12,697 nt of DNA. Source: a virus. Both the position numbers and the translations under genes were made by a program. Positions within the stretch are counted from its first letter, which is position 1. The number at the start of each line of letters is the position of its first letter. Under the pieces are notes generated by a model. It did not search any database and was not told where the DNA came from. It saw nothing but the letters and a program-made list of their open reading frames with translations. Below, one piece after another: positions 1-12,697 of the stretch. The stretch lies in the IMG/VR virus record IMGVR_UViG_3300029573_000061, positions 1 to 12,697 of that record; one strand, written 5' to 3'.

Positions 1-198
1 GACAGCTACGACCCGAAGACCAACACGCGCACTATCTCAAAGATTGAAAAAGTCTACGAGGTCAGCGTTTGCCCGTTCCCGGCTTACCCGGCGGCAAGCG
101 TTGAAGCGCGGAAGGCACGGCAAGACGGATTGAACCGCCTGGAAGCACTGAACAACGCGCGGATTCTTGCAAACATCATTTTGGCAAAGGAGTTTTAA
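1..198 (+). CDS. Prohead protease, HK97 family (C-terminal part of the gene that begins at 12218 and crosses the circular junction)
   Basis: Frame 1 from base 1 continues the frame of the ATG at 12218 (12599 is codon position 1 and equals base 1). Translation reads ...GMSFAFKVPQGGDSYDPKTNTRTISKIEKVYEVSVCPFPAYPAASVEARKARQDGLNRLEALNNARILANIILAKEF and stops at TAA 196-198. The catalytic-region motifs resemble HK97 gp4/U35 peptidases. The gene lies between portal and capsid as in HK97-like head modules. Confidence 0.8.
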   Translation, partial: DSYDPKTNTRTISKIEKVYEVSVCPFPAYPAASVEARKARQDGLNRLEALNNARILANIILAKEF

Positions 199-200
199 CC

Positions 201-1454
201 ATGTTTAAGACCGTTCAAGACGCATTCAACCACTACCGCAACTATTCCCTTGCGGACATTGAGAAGCGCGCCCAGGAGGTCAAGGGCGTTATTGAGACAG
301 ACCCCGGCGTAGACATCAAGGCCCTTAACATTGAGCTTACCGGCCTTGCGGAAGCCAAGGCCAACGCCCAGGAGAAGCAGGGCGACCAGGGCGGCGCACA
401 GGGCGCACAGGAGCCGGAGGCACGCGGCTACAACCCCATCACCGGCGCGAACTTTGCGGGCGGAAGCTACCAGGCGACCACGGGCGACGTTTACGCAAGC
501 GCGGAGTACCGCAGCGCCTTCTACAAGACCCTTACGGGCAAGAGCCTTAACCAGGCGGAGAAGAACGCATTTAACCGCGCTATGGAGATTGAGAAGCGGG
601 CCGGTTCGGACGCTTACACCACTTCCGGCAACACGCCCGTTATCATCCCAACGGCCACGCTCAACGAGATTGTGAGCAAGGCCCGCAACGAGGGCGGCAC
701 GCTTTCCATTGCCCGCGCGTTCAACATGCCCAGCAAGATTAGCATTCCCGTTGCCACGCCTTCCGGCAAGGCCGCATGGCACACGGAGGGCGCTACCGTG
801 AACACGGAGCAGCCCAGCGTTACCAACGTCACCTTTGACGCCAACGAGATTATCAAGATTTTCTCTATCAGCGCCAAGGTTAAGACCATGAGCATTAGCG
901 CGTTTGAGTCCTATCTTGCGGACGAACTCAACAAGTGCGTGTTTGAGTGCATCGCCGACAGCCTTATCAACGGCAACGGCACCAACCAGGGCATGGGACT
1001 TGAGAAGGGCGTTACCTGGAACGCCGAGAACAGCGTTACCGTTGCCAAGGGCGGTTCTATCGCCTACGCGGACGTTGTTAACACGGTTGCCCTTCTGAAG
1101 CGCGGCTATTCCAAGGGCGCTAAGTGGGTCATGAACAATGCCACCCTTTACCGCGTCTTCTATGGGATGCTGGACGGCAACAAGCGCCCCGTCTTCATCG
1201 CCGACACCCAGAACGACGGCATTGGCAAGATTCTGGGCTTTGAGGTTGTCGTAGATGATTATGTGGCCGACAACGTTTGCTATTTCGGCAACTTTGACTA
1301 TCTGGGCTACAACCTTGCCAACGGCATTGCGGTTGAGTCTTCTACCCAGTCCGCCTTCCGTTCCGGCCTTATCGACTATCGCGGCATGGCCATCGCCGAC
1401 ACGCGCGTTATCGTGCCGGAAGCCTTCACCAAGCTTGCCATTGCCACGGCCTAG
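201..1454 (+). CDS. Major capsid protein, HK97 fold, with an N-terminal scaffolding (delta) domain
   Basis: A 417-aa ORF begins 3 bp after the protease stop, with an AAGGAG ribosome-binding site at 187-192. The charged, coiled-coil-like N-terminal region (EKRAQEVKG...AEAKANAQEKQ) is followed by a capsid-fold region with an HK97-like C-terminus (GNFDYLGYNLANGIAVESS...GMAIADTRVIVPEAFTKL). Codon bias is strong toward CTT, CGC and AAC. Confidence 0.88.
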   Translation: MFKTVQDAFNHYRNYSLADIEKRAQEVKGVIETDPGVDIKALNIELTGLAEAKANAQEKQGDQGGAQGAQEPEARGYNPITGANFAGGSYQATTGDVYASAEYRSAFYKTLTGKSLNQAEKNAFNRAMEIEKRAGSDAYTTSGNTPVIIPTATLNEIVSKARNEGGTLSIARAFNMPSKISIPVATPSGKAAWHTEGATVNTEQPSVTNVTFDANEIIKIFSISAKVKTMSISAFESYLADELNKCVFECIADSLINGNGTNQGMGLEKGVTWNAENSVTVAKGGSIAYADVVNTVALLKRGYSKGAKWVMNNATLYRVFYGMLDGNKRPVFIADTQNDGIGKILGFEVVVDDYVADNVCYFGNFDYLGYNLANGIAVESSTQSAFRSGLIDYRGMAIADTRVIVPEAFTKLAIATA

Positions 1455-1466
1455 GGGGTATAGCGC

Positions 1467-1739
1467 ATGGCACAGGTTATAAGCATTGACGAAGCCCGCG
1501 AGTGGTTGCGCCTGGACGGCACCGACAACGACGCGGTTGTTTCCGGGCTTATCGACGGCGCGGCGGAGTACATCGCCATTGCTACCGGCCTGGACGCGAA
1601 CGCGCAAGCACAAAGCCCGTTGGCAAAGACGGCGACGAAGTTTCTTCTTTCGCTTTGGTACGACCCAACGCAGACCGACACCGACAGGCTGCAACGTTCA
1701 ATCGACAACCTGCTAAAGGCGGTTACGCACGTGGGCTAA
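1467..1739 (+). CDS. Head-tail connector protein (gp6-like, Phage_connect_1 family)
   Basis: A 90-aa protein beginning MAQVISIDEAREWLRLDGTDNDAVVSGLIDGAAEYIAIATG...LLSLWYDP...SIDNLLKAV. The size, N-terminal EA(K/R)xxLRxD motif and position immediately after the capsid gene match gp6-like head completion proteins. Confidence 0.75.
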   Translation: MAQVISIDEAREWLRLDGTDNDAVVSGLIDGAAEYIAIATGLDANAQAQSPLAKTATKFLLSLWYDPTQTDTDRLQRSIDNLLKAVTHVG

Positions 1740-1755
1740 AGGTGAGTGGTGGGCT

Positions 1756-2046
1756 ATGAAGGAATGGGCTAGACCGTTCTACACTTCCACGGCCTGGAGG
1801 AAGACCCAAAGGGCCTACATGGAAAGCAAGCACTATGTATGCGAGCGTTGCGGGAAACCCGCCTACATAGTCCACCACAAGACCTATCTAACGCCTAAGA
1901 ACATAGGCGACCCGGCAATAACGTTGGCATGGGACAACCTGGAAGCCCTATGCCAAACGTGCCACCAGCACGAGCATTTCAGAAACAACCAGGTAACGGC
2001 ACCGGGCTTGCGTTTCGACGCATCCGGGCAATTGACAAAGGAATAG
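1756..2046 (+). CDS. HNH endonuclease (phage packaging-associated)
   Basis: A 96-aa ORF carries WRKTQRAY...CERCGK...VHHKTYL...DNLEALCQTCHQHEH, the classic HNH and zinc-finger motifs. It sits just upstream of the terS-terL pair, as in HK97-like cos phages where the HNH protein assists terminase cleavage. Confidence 0.85.
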   Translation: MKEWARPFYTSTAWRKTQRAYMESKHYVCERCGKPAYIVHHKTYLTPKNIGDPAITLAWDNLEALCQTCHQHEHFRNNQVTAPGLRFDASGQLTKE

Positions 2047-2068
2047 GCGTTACGTTGCAGCAGACCGT

Positions 2069-2084
2069 TTGGGCCGTGGCCCAA
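2069..2084. repeat. Perfect 16-bp palindrome TTGGGCCGTGGCCCAA directly downstream of the HNH gene
   Basis: The reverse complement of TTGGGCC is GGCCCAA, with a 2-nt spacer. No T-tract follows, so it is not a canonical intrinsic terminator. It may be a protein-binding site, part of cos, or an RNA hairpin. Confidence 0.5.
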
Positions 2085-2465
2085 CCGTAACCCACGCGCA
2101 AGACCTATGGGGCCCTTGCCGGACTAGTCACCCGGCGGCGCTAACTAGTTCTTTCCGGTTCTTCTTCTTAGCGGTTCTTGTACCGGCCCCGGGCGGCGTG
2201 GAGTGGCGACCCATCCTAGCGCAAGGGCGGCAAGCCACGCGGTACCGCACGGAAGGGCTAGGCGGAAGCCTACGAACTGGGCGGGCTATCCTTACTTCTT
2301 CATCACCCAACCAGCTAGCGCGGTTCAAACGGCCTACTGGAGCGCAACGACCTAACCCGGACACCCCCAGCCCCCGAACGGACGGAAGGCGCGGCGTAAT
2401 CGAGCTGCCTACCTTTCCTTACCCGTCCGGGGTTTTCCATATGAGGGGGGTATATTTTGATATGA

Positions 2466-2481
2466 AAGACAGCAAGACAGC
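2466..2481 (+). promoter_or_regulatory. Tandem AAGACAGC x2 motif (copy 1 of 3 loci), abutting TTGACA at 2482-2487, upstream of terS
   Basis: The exact string AAGACAGCAAGACAGC recurs at 10863-10878 and as three units at 5050-5073. Each copy is intergenic and upstream of an operon. Confidence 0.6.
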
Positions 2482-2502
2482 TTGACATGTTGGGGTAATG
2501 GC

Positions 2503-2850
2503 ATGGAGATAGACAAAGACAAAATCAGACGCGCGGAAACGCGCAAGCTTAACCGGCTTGTTAAGGCCGTGCCGGACGAAAAGAAGACCGTTGCACAGAG
2601 CCTAACCAGGGAACTTGTCTTCATGGCGGGGACGCTGGAGGAGCTAAGGGCGTTCGTTGACGAAAACGGCGCGGTTGACAACTTCAAAAACGGGCGGCAA
2701 GAGATGCTAAGGGAATCCCCGGCGTTGAAGAGCTACAGTACGCTTATTCAGCGCTACAGCCTTCTTTACAAGCAGCTTTGCGACCTACTGCCTAAAGAGG
2801 TAGCCAAACAGGCGGAAGACGAACTAATGAACTTCCTGGGCATGGGCTAG
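2503..2850 (+). CDS. terS: Terminase small subunit, P27 family
   Basis: A 115-aa protein MEIDKDKIRRAETRKLNRLVKAVPDEKKTVAQSLTRELVFMAGTLEELRAF...YSLLYKQLCDLL matches the pattern of P27-family small terminases paired with HNH and Terminase_1 TerL. The start is chosen at the ATG at 2503, since the TTG at 2482 lacks a ribosome-binding site. The gene lies directly upstream of terL. Confidence 0.75.
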   Translation: MEIDKDKIRRAETRKLNRLVKAVPDEKKTVAQSLTRELVFMAGTLEELRAFVDENGAVDNFKNGRQEMLRESPALKSYSTLIQRYSLLYKQLCDLLPKEVAKQAEDELMNFLGMG

Positions 2851-2863
2851 GGGGCGGCAAGGC

Positions 2864-4504
2864 ATGAACTACCTAAAAGCCTACCTGGACGCGATAGAAG
2901 GCGGTGAGATTGTCGTATGCAAGCGGATACGGAAGGTTTACACGCGCCTTGTCTACGAAGCGGAAAACCCCGGCAAGTATCGCTTTGACGAAGAGCGGGC
3001 AAACCGCCCCATAGAATTCATTGAGCGCTTTTGCAAGCACAGCAAGGGCGAATGGGCGGGGCAACCCGTGCGCCTGGAGCTATTCCAGAAAGCTTTCATT
3101 AGTGCCTTGTTCGGCTTTGTTGACAGCAAGACAGGCTTTAGAAAGTACCGTGAAGCCTTCTTCATGGTTGCCCGGAAGAACGGAAAAAGCACGATGCTTG
3201 CGGGCATCGCCCTATACATGTTGCTTGCGGACGGGGAAGCGGGCGCGGAAGTCTACAGCGTTGCCACGAAGAAAGACCAGGCCAAAATCATTTTTGACGA
3301 AGTTTGCCACATGGTGAGCCAAAGCCCCTACCTGCGTAAGCACATCAAGAAGCGCAAAAGTGACCTTTACTTTTCGGCTTCAATGAGCAAGCTACAGCCC
3401 CTGGGCAAGAATTCCGACACCCTGGACGGCCTTAATTCGTCTTGCGTAATCCTGGACGAAGCCCACGCGGTGAAAGACCGCAACTTGTACGAGGTAATGA
3501 AGCAATCGCAAAGCGCTAGGACGCAGCCACTTTTCGTCACAATCACCACGGCGGGAACCGTGCGGGAATGCATCTTCGACGATATGTATTCCTACGCTTG
3601 CAAGGTTGCGGACGGGGTAATAACAGACCCAACATTTTTGCCAATCGTCTACGAGCTGGACAGCAAGGCCGAATGGAAAGACCCCGGCGCATGGTTCAAG
3701 CCAAACCCAGGGCTAGGACGGATAAAGAAGCTTGAAGACCTAATGGCGAAAGTCGAACGCGCAAAGCAAAGCCCAAAAGACCTTAGCGGCATTCTCTGCA
3801 AGGACTTCAACGTAAGGGAAACGCTTTACAACGCATGGCTTGACTTCGACACGATTAACAACGAATCGACATTCAGCCTAGAAGACTTTAGGGGTTGCTA
3901 TGCCATAGGCGGCGCGGACTTGTCACTAACGACAGACCTAACGTGTGCAACCGTCCTAATGCTCAACCCGGAAACGCGCGAGCGGTTCGTTTGGCAAATG
4001 TATTGGCTACCGGAAGACAACTTCAACCAGCGCGTTGCAGAGGAAAAAATACCCTACGACAAATGGCGGGAAGCGGGCCTGGTAAGGCTTTGCCGGGGAA
4101 ACACAATCGACTATAGCGACGTGACAGCGTGGTTTCTGGAGCTAGTCAACGAACACGGCATAACGCCTCTATGGGTTTACTACGACAGTTGGAGCGCCCG
4201 TTACTGGGTTGAGGAAATGGAGGGCTACGGCTTCAAAATGGAGCGGTGCATACAGGGGGCCAAGACGCTTTCACTTCCAATGCAAAACCTGGGCGCGGAC
4301 TTGCAGGCAAAGAAAGTCAACTACAACAACAACCCAATCTTGAAATGGTGCCTAACCAACACGGCGGTACAGGAAGACAGGAACGGCAACATAGTCCCAA
4401 AGAAGGCAAGCAGCCCGAAACAGCGCATAGACGGCACGGCAAGCCTTCTGGACGCTTACGTAGGGCTTTACGAGAAATACAACGAGTTTCTAAACGCACT
4501 GTAG
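2864..4504 (+). CDS. terL: Terminase large subunit (Terminase_1 family: ATPase plus RNaseH-like nuclease)
   Basis: A 546-aa protein with the Walker A-like motif VARKNGKST, a Walker B/DE region (SCVILDEAHAV) and a C-terminal nuclease motif (KQRIDGTASLLDAYV). The GGGGCGGCAAGG ribosome-binding region precedes the ATG at 2864. Confidence 0.9.
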   Translation: MNYLKAYLDAIEGGEIVVCKRIRKVYTRLVYEAENPGKYRFDEERANRPIEFIERFCKHSKGEWAGQPVRLELFQKAFISALFGFVDSKTGFRKYREAFFMVARKNGKSTMLAGIALYMLLADGEAGAEVYSVATKKDQAKIIFDEVCHMVSQSPYLRKHIKKRKSDLYFSASMSKLQPLGKNSDTLDGLNSSCVILDEAHAVKDRNLYEVMKQSQSARTQPLFVTITTAGTVRECIFDDMYSYACKVADGVITDPTFLPIVYELDSKAEWKDPGAWFKPNPGLGRIKKLEDLMAKVERAKQSPKDLSGILCKDFNVRETLYNAWLDFDTINNESTFSLEDFRGCYAIGGADLSLTTDLTCATVLMLNPETRERFVWQMYWLPEDNFNQRVAEEKIPYDKWREAGLVRLCRGNTIDYSDVTAWFLELVNEHGITPLWVYYDSWSARYWVEEMEGYGFKMERCIQGAKTLSLPMQNLGADLQAKKVNYNNNPILKWCLTNTAVQEDRNGNIVPKKASSPKQRIDGTASLLDAYVGLYEKYNEFLNAL

Positions 4505-4518
4505 AAGGAGGGCTAGAA

Positions 4519-4923
4519 ATGGCCGGAAAACAGGTTCTAAAGGATAAGAAAATCGTTATCTACAAGAAGCTAAGCTATAGGGATGCGGAGGGCTATCCGA
4601 CTACCGGCTATATGCCGGTACACCCGCAGCCTAGTATCTGGGCTTACTTCAAACAGCTTTCGACAAGCCTTGTCTATGCGAGCAGCACCACGACCACAAA
4701 GGAAGATTGCCTTTTCCGTATCAATTGGCTGGATTGCTTGCGCACGGCTTACCCCAGCGACCTGGTAATCGGGTATAGGGGCATTCTCTACCAGGTTACG
4801 CGCATTGACCCATACGAGGACTATACGCGCGACATGGTTTTGTACGGTAGCCGAAAGGACGGCAATACCATTAGCCCAATAATCCCTTACGACCCCAAGA
4901 AGCTAGCCCAAAACGGGAAATAG
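4519..4923 (+). CDS. Head closure / head-tail joining protein (Phage_H_T_join, SPP1 gp16-like)
   Basis: A 134-aa ORF with a strong ribosome-binding site (AAGGAGGG) before the ATG at 4519. It carries the family-typical C-terminal pattern ...KEDCLFRINWLDCLRTAYPSDLVIGYRGILYQVTRIDPYEDYTRDMVLYG. The long ORF-track N-terminal extension (4246-4518) overlaps terL and is rejected. Confidence 0.7.
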   Translation: MAGKQVLKDKKIVIYKKLSYRDAEGYPTTGYMPVHPQPSIWAYFKQLSTSLVYASSTTTTKEDCLFRINWLDCLRTAYPSDLVIGYRGILYQVTRIDPYEDYTRDMVLYGSRKDGNTISPIIPYDPKKLAQNGK

Positions 4924-4986
4924 CCCCAGGAGCCACAGAAAGCCCCGTAGCGGCGCGTTAGCGCGGCAATGGGCAAATACTCAAAG

Positions 4987-5031
4987 CGGCCTTTTAGAAC
5001 GCCTTAAAAGCGATTCTAGAAGGCCGTTTTT
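4987..5031 (+). terminator. Rho-independent terminator candidate after the terS-terL-head closure operon
   Basis: CGGCCTT (4987-4993) pairs with AAGGCCG (5020-5026), and inner pairing is TAGAA/TTCTA and CGC/GCG around a CTTAAAA loop. A TTTTT tract follows at 5027-5031. The hairpin is long and imperfect. Confidence 0.5.
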
Positions 5032-5049
5032 CTATGCAAACAAAGCTAG

Positions 5050-5073
5050 CAAGACAGCAAGACAGCAAGACAG
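5050..5073 (+). promoter_or_regulatory. Tandem CAAGACAG x3 motif (copy 2 of 3 loci), 20 bp upstream of a -35 element
   Basis: The sequence is CAAGACAGCAAGACAGCAAGACAGC, the same 8-mer unit as at 2466-2481 and 10863-10878. Confidence 0.6.
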
Positions 5074-5092
5074 CAAACAAATCAAAAATCTA

Positions 5093-5122
5093 TTGACAAG
5101 TTAGCCATATGGCCGTTAAAAT
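5093..5122 (+). promoter_or_regulatory. Sigma70-type promoter (-35 TTGACA, 18-bp spacer, -10 TAAAAT)
   Basis: TTGACA lies at 5093-5098 and TAAAAT at 5117-5122. The shared CATATGG..TAAAAT core also occurs at the portal-operon promoter (10933-10945). The predicted transcription start is near 5130, upstream of the SD-preceded ATG at 5163. Confidence 0.6.
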
Positions 5123-5162
5123 GGACAATGTAGTAACGGACTGCCTAGAAGAAGGGGCGACC

Positions 5163-5978
5163 ATGGTTAACGTTATCGACCTATCGGACATTGGGGCGGC
5201 AAGGGAAGACGAAAAGCCAAAGAGCAAGGGCATTCACATTGCCGTCATTGAGCCGGGGAAAGACCCGTACTTGAAGAAGGTAGCCCCGGACGCGGACGGC
5301 AGCTATCTGGGCGCGTTTCAAGACGAGGTAGGCGTGCTTGTGGAAGCCTACGAACCGCCATTCGGTGAAACGCCCTTGCTTTGGGTCAACGAAGAACTTC
5401 CGTTCAACGGCTCAACGCCAAACCGCGCAATCTACGCAAACAAGCGCATGGAGGGCATGGGCTATCTTTCCGAATTCGGCGACCACAGCAAGGCGGTAAA
5501 GGCGGGCGAGCTGTACGGCATCATTTGCGGCACGTTCATTGCCGTTTCGTACGACAGGGACGAAGAGGGCAACGACAAGCCCAGGGACATAACCGTAGAA
5601 GAATGGCTGGACGTGTGCGCGGCTTTCGCGGGCATCCGCAGCGTTCTTAGCGGTGCCCTGGAGGTCACGGGCCTACAGCGCGAGCATTGCACCGAACACA
5701 TAAAGGTGAACTTGCCCGGAAGCAAGGCGGACGAAGGCACCGGCAACGGTGAAGGCGTTTGGGTTCTTGTGAACAAGCCCGTGAAAGAAGACTACGACGC
5801 GGACGCGCGGGGCGGTTTCTATTTCGGCATCCTGGACAACGATTCTTGCTATTGGCCCGGACTCAACCACGGGGCCGTTATCCCGTTCGAAATGCGCGGC
5901 GACAAGCGACCCGTAGCGCCATATGAATGGCTTTACGACGGTTCAGAGCGCGAAAAGAAGTTCGGGAAGCTGGACTAG
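5163..5978 (+). CDS. DUF3846-like domain protein (N-terminal domain) with an uncharacterised C-terminal region
   Basis: The N-terminal segment IHIAVIEPGKDPYLKKVAPDADGSYLGAFQDEVGVLVEAYEPPFGETPLLWVNEELPFNGSTPNRAIY...GELYGIICGTFIAVSYDRDEEGNDKPRDITVEEWLDV follows my remembered DUF3846 pattern (IEPGK...LQ..VGG.IE...NEEG...N...I.G.F.I). That domain is common on conjugative and mobile elements, often near anti-restriction genes. The start is chosen at the ATG at 5163 (AAGGGG ribosome-binding site), because the ATGs at 5109 and 5121 fall inside the predicted promoter. Confidence 0.45.
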   Translation: MVNVIDLSDIGAAREDEKPKSKGIHIAVIEPGKDPYLKKVAPDADGSYLGAFQDEVGVLVEAYEPPFGETPLLWVNEELPFNGSTPNRAIYANKRMEGMGYLSEFGDHSKAVKAGELYGIICGTFIAVSYDRDEEGNDKPRDITVEEWLDVCAAFAGIRSVLSGALEVTGLQREHCTEHIKVNLPGSKADEGTGNGEGVWVLVNKPVKEDYDADARGGFYFGILDNDSCYWPGLNHGAVIPFEMRGDKRPVAPYEWLYDGSEREKKFGKLD

Positions 5979-5986
5979 GGGCGACC

Positions 5987-6052
5987 ATGAAACCAGGCGA
6001 CTTTATCCGAAAGGAAGACCCGCACGGCAAGAAACTGGAGGGTACCAAATGA
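5987..6052 (+). CDS. Possible 21-aa upstream ORF (MKPGDFIRKEDPHGKKLEGTK) translationally coupled to the next gene
   Basis: A GGGG ribosome-binding site lies 4 nt upstream of the ATG at 5987. The stop TGA at 6050-6052 overlaps the ATG at 6049 of the downstream gene in an ATGA arrangement. Such a small ORF may be fortuitous. Confidence 0.2.
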   Translation: MKPGDFIRKEDPHGKKLEGTK

Positions 6053-6369
6053 GCAAATGGGTTGTAACGCGCAAGCTTACGGGCGCGTTTGAGGGCTTCA
6101 AACAGTCTTTGACGATTGACGCGGACGCGGTAGCCATCCCGCTTGACGCGGAAATAGACGAGGGCGGCGCGGTTGCCCGCTTCAACGGCTTTGCAATCCC
6201 GCTGGAACCGGGCGACAGGGTTAACCAGGCGCGAGTTTGCCCGGAGTGCGGGCGCGTTTACACGGAATACCCGGCGCTAAGCCGCAAGGACAACCAGACG
6301 GAAATTTGCCCGGAATGCGGCACACGTGAAGCCCTGGAAGCGTTCGAACGATACCAGGAAGGACGGTAA
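6049..6369 (+). CDS. Zinc-ribbon protein with a double CPECG motif, function unknown
   Basis: A 106-aa ORF with a GGAGGG ribosome-binding site 7 nt upstream. Two CxxC pairs (CPECGRVY...CPECGTRE) are spaced as in a Zn-ribbon. I do not recognise a family for it. Confidence 0.55.
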   Translation: MSKWVVTRKLTGAFEGFKQSLTIDADAVAIPLDAEIDEGGAVARFNGFAIPLEPGDRVNQARVCPECGRVYTEYPALSRKDNQTEICPECGTREALEAFERYQEGR

Positions 6370-6374
6370 AAGGC

Positions 6375-6833
6375 ATGGGAAGCTATACCCTTTACGCCCT
6401 TGCTGTACCGGACGGGCGAATACCGCGCCTTTACGTGGGCGTTACCGCCCAGAAGCCTACTAGGCGCTGGAACGGCGGCGAGGGCTACAAGAGCTCGGCA
6501 AAGTTCTACCAGGCAATCAAGGCTTGCGGCTGGAACAACGTTAGGCACTTCATCATTGCGGACGGCTTGACGGAAGAAGAAGCCTACAGGCTGGAGCGCG
6601 AGGAAATAGGCCGAATGCGGCTAACCGCCCTGGGCTGGAACGTGGCACCGGGCGGCAAGGAACCATGGAACAAGGGCAAGACGGGCGTTTTCACAGCGGA
6701 AGCCCTGGAGAAAATGCGGCGGGCGAAGATAGGCAACAAATACGCGGCGAAGAAGAGAAAGGGGCCGGAATATGAAGGCGATAGCGATAGTGAACCAGAA
6801 GGGCGGCGTTGGAAAGACAACGACAGCCGTTAA
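6375..6833 (+). CDS. GIY-YIG nuclease family protein with a NUMOD3-like motif (homing-endonuclease-like)
   Basis: TLYALAV...RLYVGVTAQKPTRRW has the GIY-(10 aa)-YIG spacing and the conserved Arg. The downstream acidic motif LEREEI and the segment GKTGVFTAEALEKMRRAKIGNK resemble a NUMOD3 DNA-binding module. The 3' end overlaps parA by 62 nt in another frame. Confidence 0.55.
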   Translation: MGSYTLYALAVPDGRIPRLYVGVTAQKPTRRWNGGEGYKSSAKFYQAIKACGWNNVRHFIIADGLTEEEAYRLEREEIGRMRLTALGWNVAPGGKEPWNKGKTGVFTAEALEKMRRAKIGNKYAAKKRKGPEYEGDSDSEPEGRRWKDNDSR

Positions 6834-7530
6834 CCTGGGCGCGGCGCTTTCCGACAGCGGGAAGCGCGTTCTATTGGTTGACTTAGACCCGCAAGGGAGC
6901 CTAACAACCAGCCTGGGCGTAGACGTTGCCCAGGAAGATACAACGGCCTATGAGCTATTGAGGGGCGACAAGCCCGCGCAAGAGGTCATAAGGCACATGA
7001 AAAGGGGTTACGACCTAATACCCGGCGACCTGCGACTAACGGGGATTGAGAAGGGAAGCAACGACGTAGTAGGGCGCGAATACCTGCTAAAAGAAGCCCT
7101 GGAGGGCGTTACGGGCGCATACGACTACGTTTTAGTGGACTGTAGCCCTTCCCTGGGCGTTCTTTCGCTCAACGCGCTAACGGCATGTGACGCGGTTCTA
7201 ATCCCCACCCAGGCGGAATACCTAGCCCTAACCGGGCTTGCACAGCTTACGCAGACCATAGCCGTTGCAAGGCGGCGGCTAAACCCGTCCCTAACCATAG
7301 CGGGCGTGGTTATGACAATGTACGACAGGCGCAAAAACCTAACGGCGGCGGTAGAAGCACGCCTGGGCGAACTGTTCCCCGGCAAGCTTTGCAAGACCCG
7401 CATTAGGTGCAACGTCGCGCTAGCGGAAGCGCCCACGCAAGGCGTTGATATTTTCGCCTACGACCCACGGAGCAACGGGGCGAAAGACTACCAGGCGCTA
7501 GCGGACGAACTAACGGAGAAGGAGCAATAG
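6772..7530 (+). CDS. parA: ParA/Soj-family partition ATPase (type Ib)
   Basis: It has the deviant Walker A motif KGGVGKTTT at the N-terminus (MKAIAIVNQKGGVGKTTTAVNLGAAL), is 252 aa long, and is followed 2 bp later by a small RHH protein gene. Confidence 0.9.
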   Translation: MKAIAIVNQKGGVGKTTTAVNLGAALSDSGKRVLLVDLDPQGSLTTSLGVDVAQEDTTAYELLRGDKPAQEVIRHMKRGYDLIPGDLRLTGIEKGSNDVVGREYLLKEALEGVTGAYDYVLVDCSPSLGVLSLNALTACDAVLIPTQAEYLALTGLAQLTQTIAVARRRLNPSLTIAGVVMTMYDRRKNLTAAVEARLGELFPGKLCKTRIRCNVALAEAPTQGVDIFAYDPRSNGAKDYQALADELTEKEQ

Positions 7531-7532
7531 GA

Positions 7533-7838
7533 ATGGCAAGAAAGAAAGACTTTGGACTAGAAGCGGTTGAAGCGTTCCTGGACGCGGACGAACAGGAAGA
7601 GAAGCAACAGGAAGAGAAGAAGGCAAAGAGGGAAGCCACCCTGGTTTCATGGCGCATAAGCAACGACACGCTAAGGCGGTTCAAGGGCTTTGCAATCATG
7701 AACGGCGGCACCCAGATAGAAGCCATTGAGAAGGTAATTAACGACTACCTGGACGGCAAGGCGCTGGAGCCGGAAGAGAAACAGGCATACGACGCTTTCA
7801 TGAGGGTTTACAAGCCCAGAAAAAACGGAGGTGCATAG
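7533..7838 (+). CDS. Ribbon-helix-helix (ParG/CopG-like) protein, likely the centromere-binding partner of ParA
   Basis: A 101-aa protein with an acidic/Lys-rich flexible N-terminus followed by an RHH-like segment (ATLVSWRISNDTLRRFKGFAIMNGGTQIEAIEKVINDYL). Its position directly downstream of parA is typical of type Ib partition cassettes. Confidence 0.55.
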   Translation: MARKKDFGLEAVEAFLDADEQEEKQQEEKKAKREATLVSWRISNDTLRRFKGFAIMNGGTQIEAIEKVINDYLDGKALEPEEKQAYDAFMRVYKPRKNGGA

Positions 7839-7840
7839 CA

Positions 7841-8080
7841 ATGCGAATGCAGATTGACGGCGTTACCTACTACGACAAGGACGAAGTTGCAAAGCTTTTC
7901 AACTGTTCCACGCGGACGGTAAGGCGCTACCAGCTTGCGGGCCACTTTGAGCAAAGGAAGGTAAACCGTAGTTGGTTCTTCACGGAGCAAAGCGTTTTGG
8001 ACTACCTGGAGCAAAGGGGCATCGTCTGCTATGCAAAGCCGGAAAAGAAGGGGGGCGCTACGAATGAGCAGAAAAATTAG
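7841..8080 (+). CDS. Helix-turn-helix DNA-binding protein (MerR/Xis/AlpA-like, HTH_17)
   Basis: A 79-aa protein carrying YYDKDEVAKLFNCSTRTVRRYQLAGHF, the characteristic excisionase/AlpA-type HTH. A GGAGGTG ribosome-binding site precedes the ATG. Confidence 0.6.
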   Translation: MRMQIDGVTYYDKDEVAKLFNCSTRTVRRYQLAGHFEQRKVNRSWFFTEQSVLDYLEQRGIVCYAKPEKKGGATNEQKN

Positions 8081-9224
8081 CGTTGTCGAATACGTGGGCA
8101 AGAGCCTGGGCGGGCGTAACTTGAAGGCCCTGGGCAATGCCCTGGGAACGTTGGTTGACAAGGGCGTAATTGAGTTTCACGAGGGCGCTAGCGCCGGATA
8201 CCTGGACAGCCTGGAGCTTGCGGACGGCAAGACGCTTGAAGACGTGGACGCGGCACTAGCGGACTACCTGCAAGCACAGACGGAGCCGAAGAGCGGCACG
8301 GCAATACGGACTTTGCGCGGACAGTACGAAAAAGGGCTAATAGTGCCTAGGGACGCTGTAACAAAGCGCGTCTTTGACGGTATGCCGTTCGACATTGAAA
8401 CGGCTATACAAGTCGTTAGCAAGGAATGCGCGGCGGACAGGTGCGCAAAAGACGTAATAGTTACCCTACGCAACAACCAGACAAAAATAAACGAAGTCAT
8501 GGACAAGCTTAACGCGGACGATAGGCGCGTTTTTGCGGCTATATGCAATTGCGTTGCCCAGGGAATACATAGGGTTACGCCAACGCAGCTTTTCAGGCTT
8601 GCATACCAGGAACCGAACGCCACGCCCTGGGAAACCCAACTGGAGCGAATGCACGACAGCATAGAGAAAATGGCAAGCATATACATAGTGCTTGACGTTA
8701 GCGCGATTTTTTCAATTTACCCAGAATTGAACATGATAAAGACGGAAGGCAACTTCATAGAGGTTACGGGGTGGGCATTCAGACCACACAAGGACGGCAA
8801 AATATCAACGTTCTACGAGTTCGGGCGGGCTATACCGGTTCTATACCAGTACGCCTTAGCCGTAAACCAAATGACAACCCTAAAGCCCACGAGGGCCAAC
8901 GCGCTTAGCACGAATCTAAGAAGGACGAAGGACAACCAGGCCGTTGTGCAGCTAATCGCCGACAGGGTAGACGGCCTGGAGGGAATGAAGAAGGGCGGCA
9001 AGAAGCCCTATAGGAACATGTACAAAATCAACTATCAAAGCTTTTACGACCGGGCGGACTTTTCTAAATGCTCATCAGACGATTCAAAGAAGAAGAAGCG
9101 CCAACGCATAAAGAATGCCGTTAGAAAACAGCTTGACTACCTTACGGAGCGCGGCGTAATCGCGAGTTGGGAACGCCTGGAGGACGGCACGGGCGTTGCC
9201 ATCAACCCCGGAGGGGCGGCGTAA
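8064..9224 (+). CDS. Hypothetical protein, possible replication initiator / iteron-binding protein
   Basis: A 386-aa ORF taking the ATG at 8064 (ribosome-binding site AAGAAGGGGGG), with an alternative ATG at 8031 that lacks one. No family is recognised. A wHTH-like segment (DDRRVFAAICNCVAQGIHRVTPTQLFRLAY) and a basic C-terminus (KKKKRQRIKNAVRKQLDYLTERG) are present. The gene lies between the regulator and primase genes, upstream of the iteron region. Confidence 0.3.
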   Translation: MSRKISVVEYVGKSLGGRNLKALGNALGTLVDKGVIEFHEGASAGYLDSLELADGKTLEDVDAALADYLQAQTEPKSGTAIRTLRGQYEKGLIVPRDAVTKRVFDGMPFDIETAIQVVSKECAADRCAKDVIVTLRNNQTKINEVMDKLNADDRRVFAAICNCVAQGIHRVTPTQLFRLAYQEPNATPWETQLERMHDSIEKMASIYIVLDVSAIFSIYPELNMIKTEGNFIEVTGWAFRPHKDGKISTFYEFGRAIPVLYQYALAVNQMTTLKPTRANALSTNLRRTKDNQAVVQLIADRVDGLEGMKKGGKKPYRNMYKINYQSFYDRADFSKCSSDDSKKKKRQRIKNAVRKQLDYLTERGVIASWERLEDGTGVAINPGGAA

Positions 9225-9226
9225 CC

Positions 9227-10213
9227 ATGCGGGCGCTAAGGAACATACCGGAAGAGTTGAAGGCCGTACCGCATTGGGTAACGCGCGGCATCAGCGGCGG
9301 CGGCGCGGCAGACCGCAAGAAGCCATACAACCCAAACACCAACGCCCCGGCTAGGGTAAACAACCCCAACACCTGGGCGACGTTCGAAGCGTGCGAGAAG
9401 GCCGTAAGGCGGGCGAGGTACAGCGGCCTGGGCTTTGTCTTCACCGGGGATTATCTGGTAATAGACCTGGACAACGTAATAGACGCAAGGGGCAACGTGC
9501 TAAGGGACGCGGCGCGGATAATCGAAGCCGTGGACAGCTACACGGAGAAGAGCCTAAGCGGGCGCGGCTTTCACATCATCGCCCACAAGCCGCCCTTTGA
9601 AATCGGCGTGAACCGCGCAAGCTTTGCCCTGGACGAAGCCACGCTAGCGAGGTTCACGCGGGAAGAGCTGGACAGGGCCACGGGCGAGCTACGCGAGAAA
9701 AGGCCCGGAATAGAGTTTTACGACAGCGGGCGTTACATGGCGCTTACGGGCGACGTGTACCAGGGGCGCGACACGATAAGTGAAGCGCCGGAAGCCCTGG
9801 AGCGCGTCTATAGCGCCTACGTTGCGGGCGCTAGGGCCACGCAAGCCCAGAAGCCGCGCGTTGCGGCAAGCTACGCCACGGGCGGCAACCTGGAGACTGT
9901 AAGGGCGCGAATGTTCAGAGGGCGCAACCGCGACCAGATAAGACAGCTTTGGAGCGGCGACGTTAGCGCATGGGGAAGCGAAAGCGAAGCGGCGCTAAGG
10001 CTTTGCGACCATCTAGCCTTCTACACGGACAAAGACCCGGCGCAAATGGCGGCGCTATTCCGCCAAAGCGGGCTTTACCGCGCAAAGTGCGACGAACCGC
10101 GCGGGAACGGCAAAACATGGCTTGACGTTGTGATAGAAAAGGCAATGGCAAAGCCAATGGCGACTTATAGCGAATACGTGCAAGGCCACAGAAGCCCGTA
10201 TAAGGAGGGCTAG
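9227..10213 (+). CDS. DNA primase-polymerase (Prim-Pol N-terminal domain plus PriCT-like C-terminal motif), with no helicase domain
   Basis: The segment LKAVPHWVTRG...KKPYNPNT...NNPNTWATFEACEKAV...YSGLGFVFTGDYLVIDLDNV...SYTEKSLSGRGFHII follows the bifunctional primase/polymerase pattern seen in plasmid, PICI and P4 primases. The C-terminal SESEAALRLCDHLAFYTDKDPAQMAALFRQSGLYRAKCDEP matches the PriCT-type motif. A GGAGGGG ribosome-binding site precedes the ATG at 9227. Confidence 0.7.
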   Translation: MRALRNIPEELKAVPHWVTRGISGGGAADRKKPYNPNTNAPARVNNPNTWATFEACEKAVRRARYSGLGFVFTGDYLVIDLDNVIDARGNVLRDAARIIEAVDSYTEKSLSGRGFHIIAHKPPFEIGVNRASFALDEATLARFTREELDRATGELREKRPGIEFYDSGRYMALTGDVYQGRDTISEAPEALERVYSAYVAGARATQAQKPRVAASYATGGNLETVRARMFRGRNRDQIRQLWSGDVSAWGSESEAALRLCDHLAFYTDKDPAQMAALFRQSGLYRAKCDEPRGNGKTWLDVVIEKAMAKPMATYSEYVQGHRSPYKEG

Positions 10214-10235
10214 GCACCAAACGGGGCATTTGCCC

Positions 10236-10286
10236 ACGAACTGAATTAAAGGCCGTAGAAACGGCATCACAGCGCCCCACAGGGGC
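10236..10286 (+). repeat. Roughly 50-bp imperfect direct repeat, copy A (its 3' half is the terminator hairpin)
   Basis: GAACTGAATTAAAGGCCGTAGAAACGGCATCACAGCGCCCCACAGGGGC at 10236-10286 is matched at 10419-10469 by GAACGAATTTAAAGCGGTTCTAGGGGCATCACAGCGCCCCACAGGGGC. The last 24 bp are identical in both copies. Confidence 0.7.
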
Positions 10287-10297
10287 GTTTTTCTTTT
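10271..10297 (+). terminator. Strong intrinsic terminator after the primase gene
   Basis: The stem CGCCCC (10273-10278) pairs with GGGGCG (10282-10287) around an ACA loop, extended by an A-T pair. The tract TTTTTCTTTT at 10288-10297 follows. Confidence 0.75.
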
Positions 10298-10418
10298 GCC
10301 CACGCAAACCGCGCGAGCCTGGGCGGCACAAACTGGGCTTTGCGCCCCGGCCCTGGAAGCCACAAGCCCACAGAATCGTTTTTAAGCGTCATTTAGCCCA
10401 TGCATAGGGCGTTTTCCC

Positions 10419-10469
10419 ATGGAACGAATTTAAAGCGGTTCTAGGGGCATCACAGCGCCCCACAGGGGC
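10419..10469 (+). repeat. Roughly 50-bp imperfect direct repeat, copy B (same GC hairpin but no T-tract)
   Basis: See copy A. The sequence following this copy is ATCTAAAGC, so the hairpin here would not terminate transcription. Confidence 0.7.
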
Positions 10470-10545
10470 ATCTAAAGCAATCCTGGACGCACAAACCACG
10501 GCACAAGCTAAACGACGGGCTACCAAAGCCGCCCCAAACTACCCC

Positions 10546-10568
10546 GCCCCTAATGTTTCGAACATGTT
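10546..10568. repeat. Two 11-bp direct repeats ATGTTTC(G/A)AAC containing the short palindromes TTCGAA and AACATGTT
   Basis: The sequence CTAATGTTTCGAACATGTTTCAAAC lies immediately upstream of the iterons and shares the CATGT core with them. Confidence 0.55.
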
Positions 10569-10569
10569 T

Positions 10570-10635
10570 CAAACCATGTAGAAGTGTCCCCCAAACCATG
10601 TAGAAGTGTCCCCCAAACCATGTAGAAGTGTCCCC
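10570..10635. repeat. Three perfect tandem 22-bp iterons (CAAACCATGTAGAAGTGTCCCC), putative replication origin
   Basis: The copies run 10570-10591, 10592-10613 and 10614-10635 and abut head-to-tail with no spacers. An AT-rich tract with a 2 x 10-bp tandem repeat (TACAAGTCTT at 10692-10711) follows. The region lies in a 770-bp non-coding stretch downstream of the primase operon. Confidence 0.7.
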
Positions 10636-10862
10636 CCCATTTTCGCCAAAAACGGCCTATTACCAGCGATAACGGCCAATTTTCCATTCGCTACAAGTCT
10701 TTACAAGTCTTTCTATCTATTACCTAATACAGGAAGGGGTACTAGTAAGACAGACTCACCTGTTAGTAGAAGCGCCCCAAAATCTTTTCTTCATTGCCTG
10801 GAGCGGAAAAGCGGGCGGACGAAAAACGCGCGGAAGTTTTCAACATTCCCATCTTTGCCACA

Positions 10863-10878
10863 AAGACAGCAAGACAGC
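10863..10878 (+). promoter_or_regulatory. Tandem AAGACAGC x2 motif (copy 3 of 3 loci), upstream of the portal operon promoter
   Basis: The 16-mer is identical to the one at 2466-2481. Confidence 0.6.
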
Positions 10879-10921
10879 TTAAATGTATAAGTGTATACCC
10901 ATGATGCATGTTTTGCTATGA

Positions 10922-10945
10922 TTGACAGCTTGCATATGGTAAAAT
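10922..10945 (+). promoter_or_regulatory. Promoter candidate for the portal-protease-capsid operon (extended -10 TGgTAAAAT; TTGACA 12 bp upstream)
   Basis: TTGACA lies at 10922-10927 and TGGTAAAAT at 10937-10945. The CATATGG-TAAAAT core is shared with the 5093-5122 promoter. The direct repeats GATTGAC x2 plus CATTGAC at 10956-10981 lie between the promoter and the portal start and are operator-like. Confidence 0.5.
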
Positions 10946-11000
10946 CGTCTATAGCGATTGACGATTGACTATCGTTCATTGACTTTTGGGGGGTGAAGAA

Positions 11001-12221
11001 GTGGGATTCTTGCAGACATTCAAGCGGCGTTTTCGTCCTGGGCGCGAACTTTCGCAGGTTCAGACGCTTACGGGCAACACGGCGACCTATACGGCATTCA
11101 GCGGCGGCGCTTACGATAACGACATTTACCGTGGAGCGGTTGACGCTATCGCACGCAATGCGGCAAAGCTCAAAGGGGCGCACATCGTCACCGGGGCGGA
11201 CAACCAGGCAAAGGCCGGGGACAAGTCACTAGACAGGCTTTTGCAGATTCAGCCAAACCCCTATATGACGGCCTACGACCTTATCTATAAGCTTTGCACC
11301 CACTACTATCTGAACAACAACGCCTTTGCCTTCCTGGACAGGGACGGGCGCGGGGCCGTTCGCAACGTGTACCCCATCACTTGCACCCAGGCGGACTTCT
11401 TGACCGATGCAAGCGGGCGGCTTTTCGTGCAATTCCGCTTTAGGAGCGGTAACACGTTCGTTCTTCCGTATGGCGACGTTATCCACTTGCGGCGCAACTT
11501 CAACAGCAACGACCTTATGGGCGACACAAACGAAGCCCTTTACCCGGCCCTGGAGCTAGCGCACACGGAGAATGAGGGCATTATCAACGGCATCAAGAGC
11601 GGCGCGACCATCCGGGGCATTCTCAAATACACCCAGGTTCTTGCACCGGAGAAGTTGAAGGCCGACAAAGAAGCGTTCATAGCCGAATACCTGGACGTTG
11701 CCAACAATGGCGGCATTGTCGCCACGGATTCAAAAAGCGAATACGTGCCGATTGACAGCAAGCCCGTTACCATCGACCCGGAGCAGACGAAGACCACGGC
11801 GACGAAGATTTACAACTACCTGGGAATTTCGGAGAAAATCGTAAATTCGACCTATTCGGAAGACGAATGGGGCGCGTTCTACGAATCCGTTATTGAGCCG
11901 TTCGCCCTTCTGCTTTCCCTGGAGTTCACGCGCAAGGTTTTCACGGAGCGCGAACGCGCATTCGGCAACGAAATTCGTTTCGGCGCGGGGCGGCTTATGT
12001 ACGCATCAAACCAAACGAAGATTGAGACGGTACGCGAGCTAATGCCGTTCGGCGTTCTTACTGTCAACCAGGCTTTGGAGATTCTCAACCTTCCGCCCGT
12101 TGAAGACGGCGACAGGCGTTTGCAGTCGCTCAACAACGCCAACACGGAGATTGTGGACAGCTACCAGCAGCAGAAGGCGGCGGGGACGGCCCCGGACACT
12201 GAAAAGGGGGCTACGGCATGA
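11001..12221 (+). CDS. Portal protein, HK97 family
   Basis: The ORF frame runs 10986-12221. The likely start is the GTG at 11001, which has a GGGGGGTGA ribosome-binding region. The TTG at 10986 is the ORF-track start. The 406-aa length, the position upstream of the protease and capsid genes, and the 4-bp ATGA overlap with the protease start at 12218 all fit a portal gene. Confidence 0.8.
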   Translation: MGFLQTFKRRFRPGRELSQVQTLTGNTATYTAFSGGAYDNDIYRGAVDAIARNAAKLKGAHIVTGADNQAKAGDKSLDRLLQIQPNPYMTAYDLIYKLCTHYYLNNNAFAFLDRDGRGAVRNVYPITCTQADFLTDASGRLFVQFRFRSGNTFVLPYGDVIHLRRNFNSNDLMGDTNEALYPALELAHTENEGIINGIKSGATIRGILKYTQVLAPEKLKADKEAFIAEYLDVANNGGIVATDSKSEYVPIDSKPVTIDPEQTKTTATKIYNYLGISEKIVNSTYSEDEWGAFYESVIEPFALLLSLEFTRKVFTERERAFGNEIRFGAGRLMYASNQTKIETVRELMPFGVLTVNQALEILNLPPVEDGDRRLQSLNNANTEIVDSYQQQKAAGTAPDTEKGATA

Positions 12222-12697
12222 AAGAGCTAAGGACAGCGACAATCAAGGCGGACGCGCCCACGGCAGAGGGCGGCGGAAACCTTGTTTTGATAGGTACGCC
12301 AATCGTCTACGACACCCCGACAACGATTAACGACCCAGCGGGAAGCTACACGGAAGTTATCAAGCGCGGGGCGCTGGACGGCGCGGACATTGCGGACAGC
12401 CGTTTGCTTTACAACCACGACCTAAACCGCATCCCGCTAGCGCGTACACCCAAGACGCTTCATTTCAACGTCACCGGCAGGGGGCTTGAAATGCGGGCGG
12501 AATTGCCGGACACGGAGGAAGCGCGTTCTATTTACACGGCAGTGAAGCGCGGCGACCTATCCGGCATGAGTTTTGCGTTCAAGGTGCCACAGGGCGGCGA
12601 CAGCTACGACCCGAAGACCAACACGCGCACTATCTCAAAGATTGAAAAAGTCTACGAGGTCAGCGTTTGCCCGTTCCCGGCTTACCCGGCGGCAAGC
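12218..12697 (+). CDS. Prohead protease, HK97 family (N-terminal part; continues at 1-198 across the circular junction)
   Basis: The ATG at 12218 overlaps the portal stop, with an AAAGGGGG ribosome-binding site upstream. Translation reads MKELRTATIKADAPTAEGGGNLVLIGTPIVYDTPTTINDPAGSYTEVIKRGALDGADIADSRLLYNHDLNRIPLARTPKTLHFNVTGRGLEMRAELPDTEEARSIYTAVKRGDLSGMSFAFKV... and shows the H/S protease motifs of the U35 family. Confidence 0.8.
   Translation, partial: MKELRTATIKADAPTAEGGGNLVLIGTPIVYDTPTTINDPAGSYTEVIKRGALDGADIADSRLLYNHDLNRIPLARTPKTLHFNVTGRGLEMRAELPDTEEARSIYTAVKRGDLSGMSFAFKVPQGGDSYDPKTNTRTISKIEKVYEVSVCPFPAYPAAS
12599..12697. repeat. Terminal 99-bp exact duplication of bases 1-99 (circular-contig overlap)
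   Basis: Bases 12599-12697 are identical to bases 1-99 and sit inside the protease coding frame, which they keep continuous. This implies a 12,598-bp circular unit. Confidence 0.9.

Follow-up and report, generated by a model that had tools for sequence, protein, structure and literature searches.

The long HNH-terS gap of a circular 12.6-kb capsid-encoding element probably joins a predicted 3'-cos site to a clade-specific structured insert

Gene content of the element and its HNH-terS gap

The DNA analysed here (positions 1 to 12,697 of IMG/VR virus record IMGVR_UViG_3300029573_000061, hereafter the window) carries all of its long ORFs on the plus strand (Table 1). Its first 99 nt (1-99) are identical to its last 99 nt (12599-12697) and four relatives (L002, L161, L162 and L166) are continuous across the junction of its ends; we therefore regard the window as a circular assembly of ~12,598 bp (about 12.6 kb). 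Besides HNH, TerS and TerL, the element encodes a capsid, a portal, a protease and two proteins of head-tail connector type, and Pfam scans of all main ORFs of this circular 12.6-kb element revealed no tail, lysis or integrase genes. The terS-like gene itself has no match in Pfam. Relatives of the window include many contigs of ~12-12.8 kb from human-gut metagenomes. In its overall make-up, the window may resemble a capsid-forming, satellite-like element, possibly one maintained as a plasmid. The AT-rich non-coding stretch that precedes the portal gene is a candidate origin and/or late-promoter region, and an intrinsic-terminator-like strong hairpin followed by a T-run (10271-10289), located after the primase-polymerase gene, is the only strong predicted terminator in the circle.

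Table 1. Features of the window and the basis of their assignment
Feature	Position	Strand	Basis or remark
Major capsid gene	201-1454	+	Pfam scans of main ORFs
gp6-type connector gene	1467-1739	+	Pfam scans of main ORFs
HNH endonuclease gene	1756-2046	+	96 aa; PF01844, E=1.3e-8; final gene before cos
Structured non-coding insert, candidate RNA	about 2040-2358	+	~310 nt; clade-specific
Internal hairpin TTGCCGG-ACTAGTCAC-CCGGCGG	2116-2138	+	GC-group consensus; alignment A7, columns 83-89 with 99-105
C-runs CCCCC-AG-CCCCC	2364-2375	.	Left element of the cos module (cosQ-like position)
Predicted cohesive-end (cosN) block TAATCGAGCTGCCT	about 2397-2410	.	Inferred from homology to the B13 overhang and from contig ends
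Imperfect inverted repeat ACCCGTCC...GAGGGGGGT	2421-2452	.	Contains the G-run; homologous to AAACCCCTCC-ATGAGTTTTCATAT-GGGGAGGGGTAAA
Three 8-bp direct repeats AAGACAGC, AAGACAGC, TTGACATG	2466-2489	.	Repeat D15; just upstream of terS
Small terminase-like gene (terS)	2503-2850	+	115 aa; position and conservation in all relatives
Large terminase gene (TerL)	2864-4504	+	PF03354 and PF20441
Head-completion protein gene	4522-4923	+	Followed by several unknown ORFs
ParA gene	6772-7530	+	
HTH_17 protein gene	7841-8080	+	
Primase-polymerase gene	9167-10213	+	With NrS-1 HBD domain
AT-rich non-coding stretch	10214-10985		770 bp, between primase-polymerase and portal genes; GC down to 43%, strong negative GC skew
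Portal gene	10986-12221	+	
Prohead protease gene	12227-end	+	Runs on into 1-~190

The HNH frame stops at 2046 and the ATG of terS lies at 2503, leaving a gap of 456 bp (2047-2502). The gene order gp6-HNH-gap-terS-TerL is kept in nearly all of the about 300 related loci from IMG/VR, GTDB genomes and metagenomes that made up our comparison set, and the HNH-terS gap of most of these relatives measures 75-140 bp. A first-pass annotation, made from the letters of the window alone, had described the gap as large and non-coding, and both descriptions hold. The sole long ORF in the gap (2069-2485; 138 aa, TTG start) has no Pfam match, its frame is broken in L002, L161, L162 and L166, whose sequences at this place are 94-96% identical to that of the window, and no open frame is shared by 33 homologous sequences. 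On account of the missing Pfam match and of the broken frame in close relatives, a coding reading of this ORF was dropped.

The same annotation had called the gap GC-rich and palindrome-dense, and had singled out several motifs as candidate terminase-binding and nicking elements of a cos site. The octamer GACTAGTC (2122-2129), the adjoining ACCCGGCGGCGCT (2130-2142) and the G-run GAGGGGGG (2443-2450) are present where it placed them, and the G-run is part of the cos module described below. The second octamer, AACTAGTT, exists but occupies 2143-2150, one position away from where it had been reported, and CGGTTCTT does occur twice (2156-2163 and 2172-2179), the copies lying 16 nt apart rather than in tandem. 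What had been taken for a perfect 16-bp palindrome at 2069-2084 has the sequence TTGGGCC-GT-GGCCCAA, in which two 7-bp arms are separated by 2 nt. The GC content of the gap is higher than that of the whole window (60.5% versus 55.5%), but the difference is modest. The abundance of palindromes and that of CCGG cores, also claimed to be numerous, are both at chance level relative to 1000 dinucleotide-preserving shuffles (P 0.26-0.68): three palindromic 8-mers were counted against 2.35 expected (P=0.43), eight palindromic 6-mers against 8.95, one 7-bp hairpin against 0.4, and seven CCGG cores against 5.2 (P=0.26). Above chance, instead, are a long-range inverted repeat (I1) formed by 2048-2076 and 2321-2349 and its conservation in relatives.

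A conserved cos module upstream of terS

A cos module occupies the 3' third of the gap (about 2364-2490). It is conserved among about 300 relatives, including those with TerL identity as low as 50%, and its distance from terS is constant. The module consists of a run of five to eight C residues at about -100 to -140 followed, ~30 nt further on, by a GACCG-N-GGGG block and then by (A/T)AAACCCCTCC-ATGAGTTTTCATAT-GGGGAGGGGTAAA; its 3' end is made up of short, lineage-specific direct repeats, after which terS starts. Nearly all relatives have the C-run ~100-140 nt upstream of terS, irrespective of the position of the HNH stop codon. The repeats adjoining terS differ from one lineage to another, with GCTTACAT present twice in L003 and GTAAACA-type repeats in L005, L015 and L018. 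Such a change of repeat between lineages, with the position kept, would fit binding sites whose sequence follows the specificity of TerS, and the three 8-bp repeats of the window are candidate TerS-binding (cosB-like) sites.

The genome ends of one phage with a related large terminase have been mapped. Bacillus phage B13 (OP066531.2) has a 14-nt 3' overhang, 5'-GGACCGAGAGGGGA-3', which is annotated in its record, was found with PhageTerm and is supported by restriction analysis (PMC9610010). The TerL proteins of B13 and of the window are 50% identical, and joining the ends of the B13 record reproduces the family module and yields an alignment with 2364-2455 of the window. In the joined sequence, a C-run precedes the right genome end by ~30 nt, the overhang coincides with the GACCG...GGGG block, and further downstream come the G-run and terS. 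The TAATCGAGCTGCCT block of the window aligns column for column with the B13 overhang, similarity within the block being weak (ATCGAG versus ACCGAG).

Contig ends of relatives, an independent proxy for the termini, cluster in this block. Six distinct metagenomic contigs start in or immediately after the homologous cohesive block (L017, L027/L204, L033, L037, L107 and L116) and two end inside it, namely L315 (13.3 kb, ending in ...ACCGAGGGGG) and L242, which belongs to the clade of the window and ends at the GTAA(T)C motif. Two others (L196 and L240) start about 10-20 nt further in, and some contig ends in the region (L163, L165 and L194) lie outside the block. The cos of the window is predicted to be an ordinary 3'-cos of the HK97/B13 type, with termini placed by homology at about 2397-2410. 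The first-pass annotation was right in looking for cos between HNH and terS; the module that aligns with the mapped B13 cos is, however, confined to the 3' third of the gap.

An imperfect inverted repeat (CCCCGAACGGACGGAAGG / CCTTTCCTTACCCGTCCGGGG, within 2368-2435) brackets the predicted cohesive block, and gave a chance miRNA-like Rfam match on the minus strand. In several distant relatives, the C-run and its flanks are complementary to the G-run and its flanks; L152/L155 carry the second run in inverted form, a C-run replacing the G-run.

A clade-specific insert between HNH and cos

The remainder of the gap is a conserved non-coding insert that occurs in a single genomic context and whose pairing is specific to the plus strand. 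The distance from the C-run to terS is constant and that from the C-run to the HNH stop codon varies among relatives: in most of them the HNH frame reaches into or beyond the C-run, whereas 210-325 nt are interposed in the clade of the window. Searches with blastn and nhmmer, together with IMG/VR motif matches filtered with the HMM, identified more than 35 distinct homologous inserts, most of them on ~12-12.8-kb contigs from human-gut metagenomes, always in the arrangement HNH-insert-terS and one per locus; the insert is missing from most relatives. No copies outside this arrangement were found by blastn, by nhmmer or in two IMG/VR motif scans, host chromosomes being covered as flanks of genome-derived loci only. 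The inserts fall into a GC-rich group (the window, L002-4 and L161-171) and an AT-rich group (L005, L007, L015, L173-197, L242, L261 and others). An HMM of the AT-rich group fails to detect the GC-rich group, including the window, in nhmmer searches; their treatment as one family rests on position, size, a closing helix with a tandem G·U and one similar hairpin.

The clade also includes a member devoid of insert, L172, in which this "empty site" contains a single AAGCTATGGCAATTACATCCCCCC and the HNH frame reads through the C-run. Inserts of the AT-rich group have a ~15-nt direct repeat, GCTAT[A/G]GCAATTAAT, on both sides. Its left copy usually shows a stop codon (TAG, TGA or TAA) at the exact position of TGG in the right copy, and the former coding sequence makes up the 3' arm of the closing helix in these inserts. 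The GC-rich group, to which the window belongs, has no flanking direct repeat. The single copy in L172 and the flanking repeats of the AT-rich group look like the outcome of an insertion or duplication event, which raises the alternatives of a miniature inverted-repeat transposable element (MITE) and of an intron considered below. For the AT-rich group, we also weighed translational bypassing, from CUA-UAG to the downstream CUA-UGG, and discounted it: the ~290-nt gap greatly exceeds known hops, the landing site lies inside the helix and the window's group has no repeat.

The left border of AT-rich inserts (e.g. L005:2299-2330) is a near-perfect palindrome, GCTATAGCAATT/AATTGTTATAGC, which gives the 5' arm of the closing helix two potential partners, the adjoining 3' end of HNH and the distal copy 290 nt downstream. 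These alternative pairings would form mutually exclusive structures around the HNH stop codon.

Fold of the insert and evidence for pairing

The insert is closed by a helix pairing 2053-2078 with 2319-2344, which may extend over the HNH stop codon by pairing of 2040-2052 with 2345-2358; it is 26-40 bp long, begins at the HNH stop codon and stops a few bases short of the C-run. The segment 2069-2084 is part of its 5' arm. The octamer GACTAGTC is essentially the loop of the internal hairpin at 2116-2138, whose stem is invariant in the GC-rich group and thus without covariation support; the AT-rich group has a hairpin of similar sequence, UGCGGU...ACCG.

Covariation in homologues, a comparison proposed in the first-pass annotation, showed the closing helix to remain paired through compensatory changes, with six covarying pairs in the AT-rich group and at least nine double-changed pairs between two GC-rich subgroups. 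Across 20 AT-rich sequences, 95.9% of cells are paired versus 27-45% when the partners are slid by 1-3 columns, and none of 500 shuffles, which leave the phylogenetic signal in place, matched the covariation score. Two internal hairpins covary as well, a further enclosing helix (UAUGC..GAAC with GUUC..GCAUA) is supported, and an invariant tandem G·U step is found in the closing helix of both groups. Ratios of G·U to A·C pairs were 222:11 and 89:2, the latter in the window's group, these counts being inflated because the structure was predicted on the plus strand. The consensus fold amounts to -50.6 kcal/mol on the plus strand versus -24.3 kcal/mol on the minus strand; single-sequence fold z-scores are modest (-1.7 on the plus strand and -2.7 on the minus strand).

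Comparison of the region with Rfam, likewise proposed in the annotation, identified no family: with Rfam 15 run at E<=10 on the full window and on the region, both here and in L005, nothing came near a gathering score, and only chance miRNA/snoRNA-type matches far below threshold were returned. Group I and group II intron models gave no match at E<=10 in 521-nt and 501-nt searches, a tRNA/tmRNA scan was empty, near and distant DNA searches of GenBank phages and plasmids found no match, and a promoter/terminator scan around the insert revealed nothing above chance. The main text of two large surveys of structured-RNA candidates makes no mention of an HNH- or cos-associated motif (PMC8040213, PMC10690425).

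Other occupants of the HNH-cos slot

Other lineages carry different sequences at this position. In L110, L121-L131, L159 and L208-L237 (e.g. L110:2800-3546), HNH has a C-terminal P-loop (GSPxSGKT) domain of ~150 aa that takes up the interval from the HNH core to the C-run, its last codons reading through the C-run. The slot of L134-L155 (e.g. L135:3359-3520), a Bacilli/Clostridia lineage with 50-57% TerL identity, holds a conserved ORF of 54-84 aa (...EELAKALDEGP...IEIKD(T/S)P...) that ends at or runs through the C-run in most cases. Shorter non-coding inserts of about 130-180 nt, unrelated in appearance, occupy the same position in L028 (1156-1290) and L085 (3341-3520); their closing stems, TATTACGCC.../...GGCGTAATA and TATGCCTTTGTAT/ATACAAAGGCATA, respectively, measure 13-18 bp. 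Larger insertions also occupy the slot in other lineages. Stem-closed inserts thus seem to recur between HNH and cos. A kinship of the window's insert with the HNH P-loop extension was considered and discarded, tblastn matching the HNH core only.

Interpretation and alternative explanations

We consider it probable that the gap comprises two unrelated elements, a 3'-cos at 2364-2490 and a clade-specific structured RNA insert at 2040-2358. The structured non-coding RNA that the first-pass annotation had offered as its fallback is the better description for the first two thirds of the gap, the last ~130 bp being cos. By analogy with the B13/HK97 model, TerS would bind the repeats beside its own gene and TerL, aided by HNH, would introduce staggered nicks in 2397-2410 that leave 3' overhangs. 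HNH and the insert would then form the right end of the packaged DNA and terS its left end, with the C-run occupying the position of a termination (cosQ-like) element.

As regards the insert, its location, its conservation, its plus-strand pairing, its lack of coding capacity and its constant genomic context are observed. We take it to be a co-transcribed structured RNA, possibly released by RNase III, whose transcription, processing and any function are inferred. It would be transcribed from the plus strand with the head and HNH genes and would fold into a multi-helix RNA clamped by the 26-40-bp helix. Given that the only strong predicted terminator lies at 10271-10289, the insert is probably located inside one long portal-to-terminase transcript. 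A duplex of this length clamping a folded core of ~250 nt is the classic geometry of an RNase III substrate. We conjecture that the long helix serves as an RNase III-type processing site, which we judge its most likely mode of action; cleavage would free a stable RNA of ~240-260 nt and uncouple the capsid-HNH mRNA from the terS-terL mRNA. Tentatively, the insert may represent an undescribed class of structured non-coding RNA (about 230-335 nt) found only in a clade of small capsid-encoding satellite/plasmid-like elements, most of them from human-gut metagenomes. Lying beside cos, at the very right-hand end of the packaged DNA, it might act in trans or in cis on how the packaging genes are expressed, on packaging itself, or on interactions with a helper phage or with host defence.

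Several other explanations were weighed against the division of the gap into a cos and an RNA insert. The whole 456 bp might be an extended cos, as the first-pass annotation had it, with the palindromes and repeats of 2069-2179 serving as terminase-binding and nicking sites. The region does lie between HNH and terS, where a cos is expected, and inverted and direct repeats are present in it, but its palindromes and CCGG cores are no commoner than in shuffled sequences. The features proposed as cosN- and cosB-like (2069-2084, GACTAGTC/AACTAGTT and CGGTTCTT) all map inside the insert, which is missing from most relatives although these keep the full cos module, and they are not kept as palindromes in the closest insert-bearing relatives (L003/L004). 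Since, in addition, the alignment places the mapped end of B13 about 250-330 bp further downstream, and a G·U strand bias is unexpected for double-stranded protein-binding sites, we regard an extended cos as very unlikely. Unlikely, too, is a MITE-like miniature mobile element, or the remnant of a site-specific insertion, devoid of function of its own. The long terminal inverted repeats (2048-2076 with 2321-2349) and their conservation in relatives, the ~15-nt flanking repeat of the AT-rich group together with the single-copy empty site of L172, and the different stem-closed inserts of L028 and L085 in the same slot are all as such an origin would have it. Yet the insert is present once per genome in a constant context, with no other copy among the loci searched or in IMG/VR motif scans; its pairing, with strand-specific G·U, is kept by compensatory changes over more than 30 diverged variants; the internal hairpins covary too; and the GC-rich group has no flanking direct repeat.

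The reading-through of the C-run by HNH in L172 and in most short-gap relatives brings to mind a self-splicing intron or otherwise excised mRNA element, whose removal would restore an ancestral C-terminal tail of HNH through the C-run; excision between the repeats of the AT-rich group would indeed restore ...KLWQLIPP. We nonetheless find this highly improbable: no group I or II model matched at E<=10 in the 521-nt search, a 30-bp helix linking the 5' and 3' ends is unlike introns, the HNH tail is short and poorly conserved, with stops from 70 nt after to 17 nt before the C-run, and the GC-rich group of the window lacks the repeat pair. That sister lineages encode a ~150-aa P-loop extension of HNH or a 54-84-aa ORF in the slot would be in keeping with the insert being decayed coding sequence, a pseudogene of either, but tblastn of these extensions against the inserts finds the HNH core only, no frame is preserved, and compensatory changes in a helix are unexpected in a decaying sequence, all of which makes this explanation scarcely credible. 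Finally, the fold might act in plus-strand single-stranded DNA, for example as an initiation or priming signal of a primase-polymerase replicon. The element encodes a primase-polymerase and ParA, and G·T pairs are tolerated in single-stranded DNA hairpins, such that the strand bias fits this reading too. It appears quite improbable, however, as the separate AT-rich 770-bp region (10214-10985) is a more natural origin, the insert is missing from most relatives with the same replication genes, and a site right after a stop codon in a run of same-strand genes fits a transcribed element.

If the two-element reading is correct, the novelty lies in a conserved, plus-strand-specific non-coding fold for which no family has been described, the cos part being of an already-known kind. 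The cos assignment gives a testable genome-end coordinate (about 2397-2410) for tail-less, capsid-encoding elements of 12-13 kb from the human gut, and shows one cos architecture to be common to many Bacillota phages and satellites. The HNH-cos slot emerges as a hot spot filled, depending on the lineage, by a P-loop domain, a small ORF or stem-closed non-coding inserts. Should the insert prove functional as an RNA, it would rank among the rare large structured RNAs linked to the packaging module of a phage satellite, and would be tractable as a single deletable copy beside a mapped landmark.

Comparison with known systems

The predicted cos of the window shares with that of B13 the order HNH, cos, terS-terL, a C-run ~30 nt ahead of the end, a 14-nt block, an inverted repeat with a G-run and a terS gene ~60-90 nt downstream. 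It differs in the cohesive block, which in the window's clade (TAATC...GCC; TAATCGAGCTGCCT in the window) is unlike GGACCGAGAGGGGA of B13, and in the slot between HNH and cos, which holds a 131-aa ORF in B13 and the non-coding structured insert in the window. The cos of phage lambda is organized as cosQ-cosN-cosB, generates 12-nt 5' overhangs, requires no HNH protein, and makes use of IHF and R sites. The two have in common a nicking site, a short upstream element and downstream small-terminase repeats beside the terminase genes; sequence similarity is absent, and the cosQ and cosB labels are applied to the window by position only.

For the insert, helices cleaved by RNase III are known to excise stable RNAs from longer transcripts, as in the stems of rRNA precursors and the early mRNA sites of phage T7. 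The likeness, a long near-perfect duplex flanking a structured RNA in a polycistronic transcript, is a functional analogy only. Miniature inverted-repeat elements of the Correia, ERIC and RUP types are dispersed, have many copies and form hairpins when co-transcribed. The insert resembles them in its terminal inverted repeats and, in one group, in its flanking direct repeats; it differs in that its context is always the same, that its interior is complex and covaries, and that no further copies were found.

With regard to the element as a whole, the closest counterparts are the capsid-forming PICIs (cf-PICIs) of Firmicutes, which display the order portal-protease-capsid...hnh-terS-terL in the Bacillus/Clostridium/Staphylococcus group and for which no RNA element at cos is described (bioRxiv 10.1101/2022.09.08.507074). 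Like them, the window encodes portal, protease, capsid, connectors, HNH, TerS and TerL and has no tail or lysis genes; unlike them, it has no integrase domain in the scanned ORFs, and is a 12.6-kb circle equipped with ParA and a primase-polymerase.
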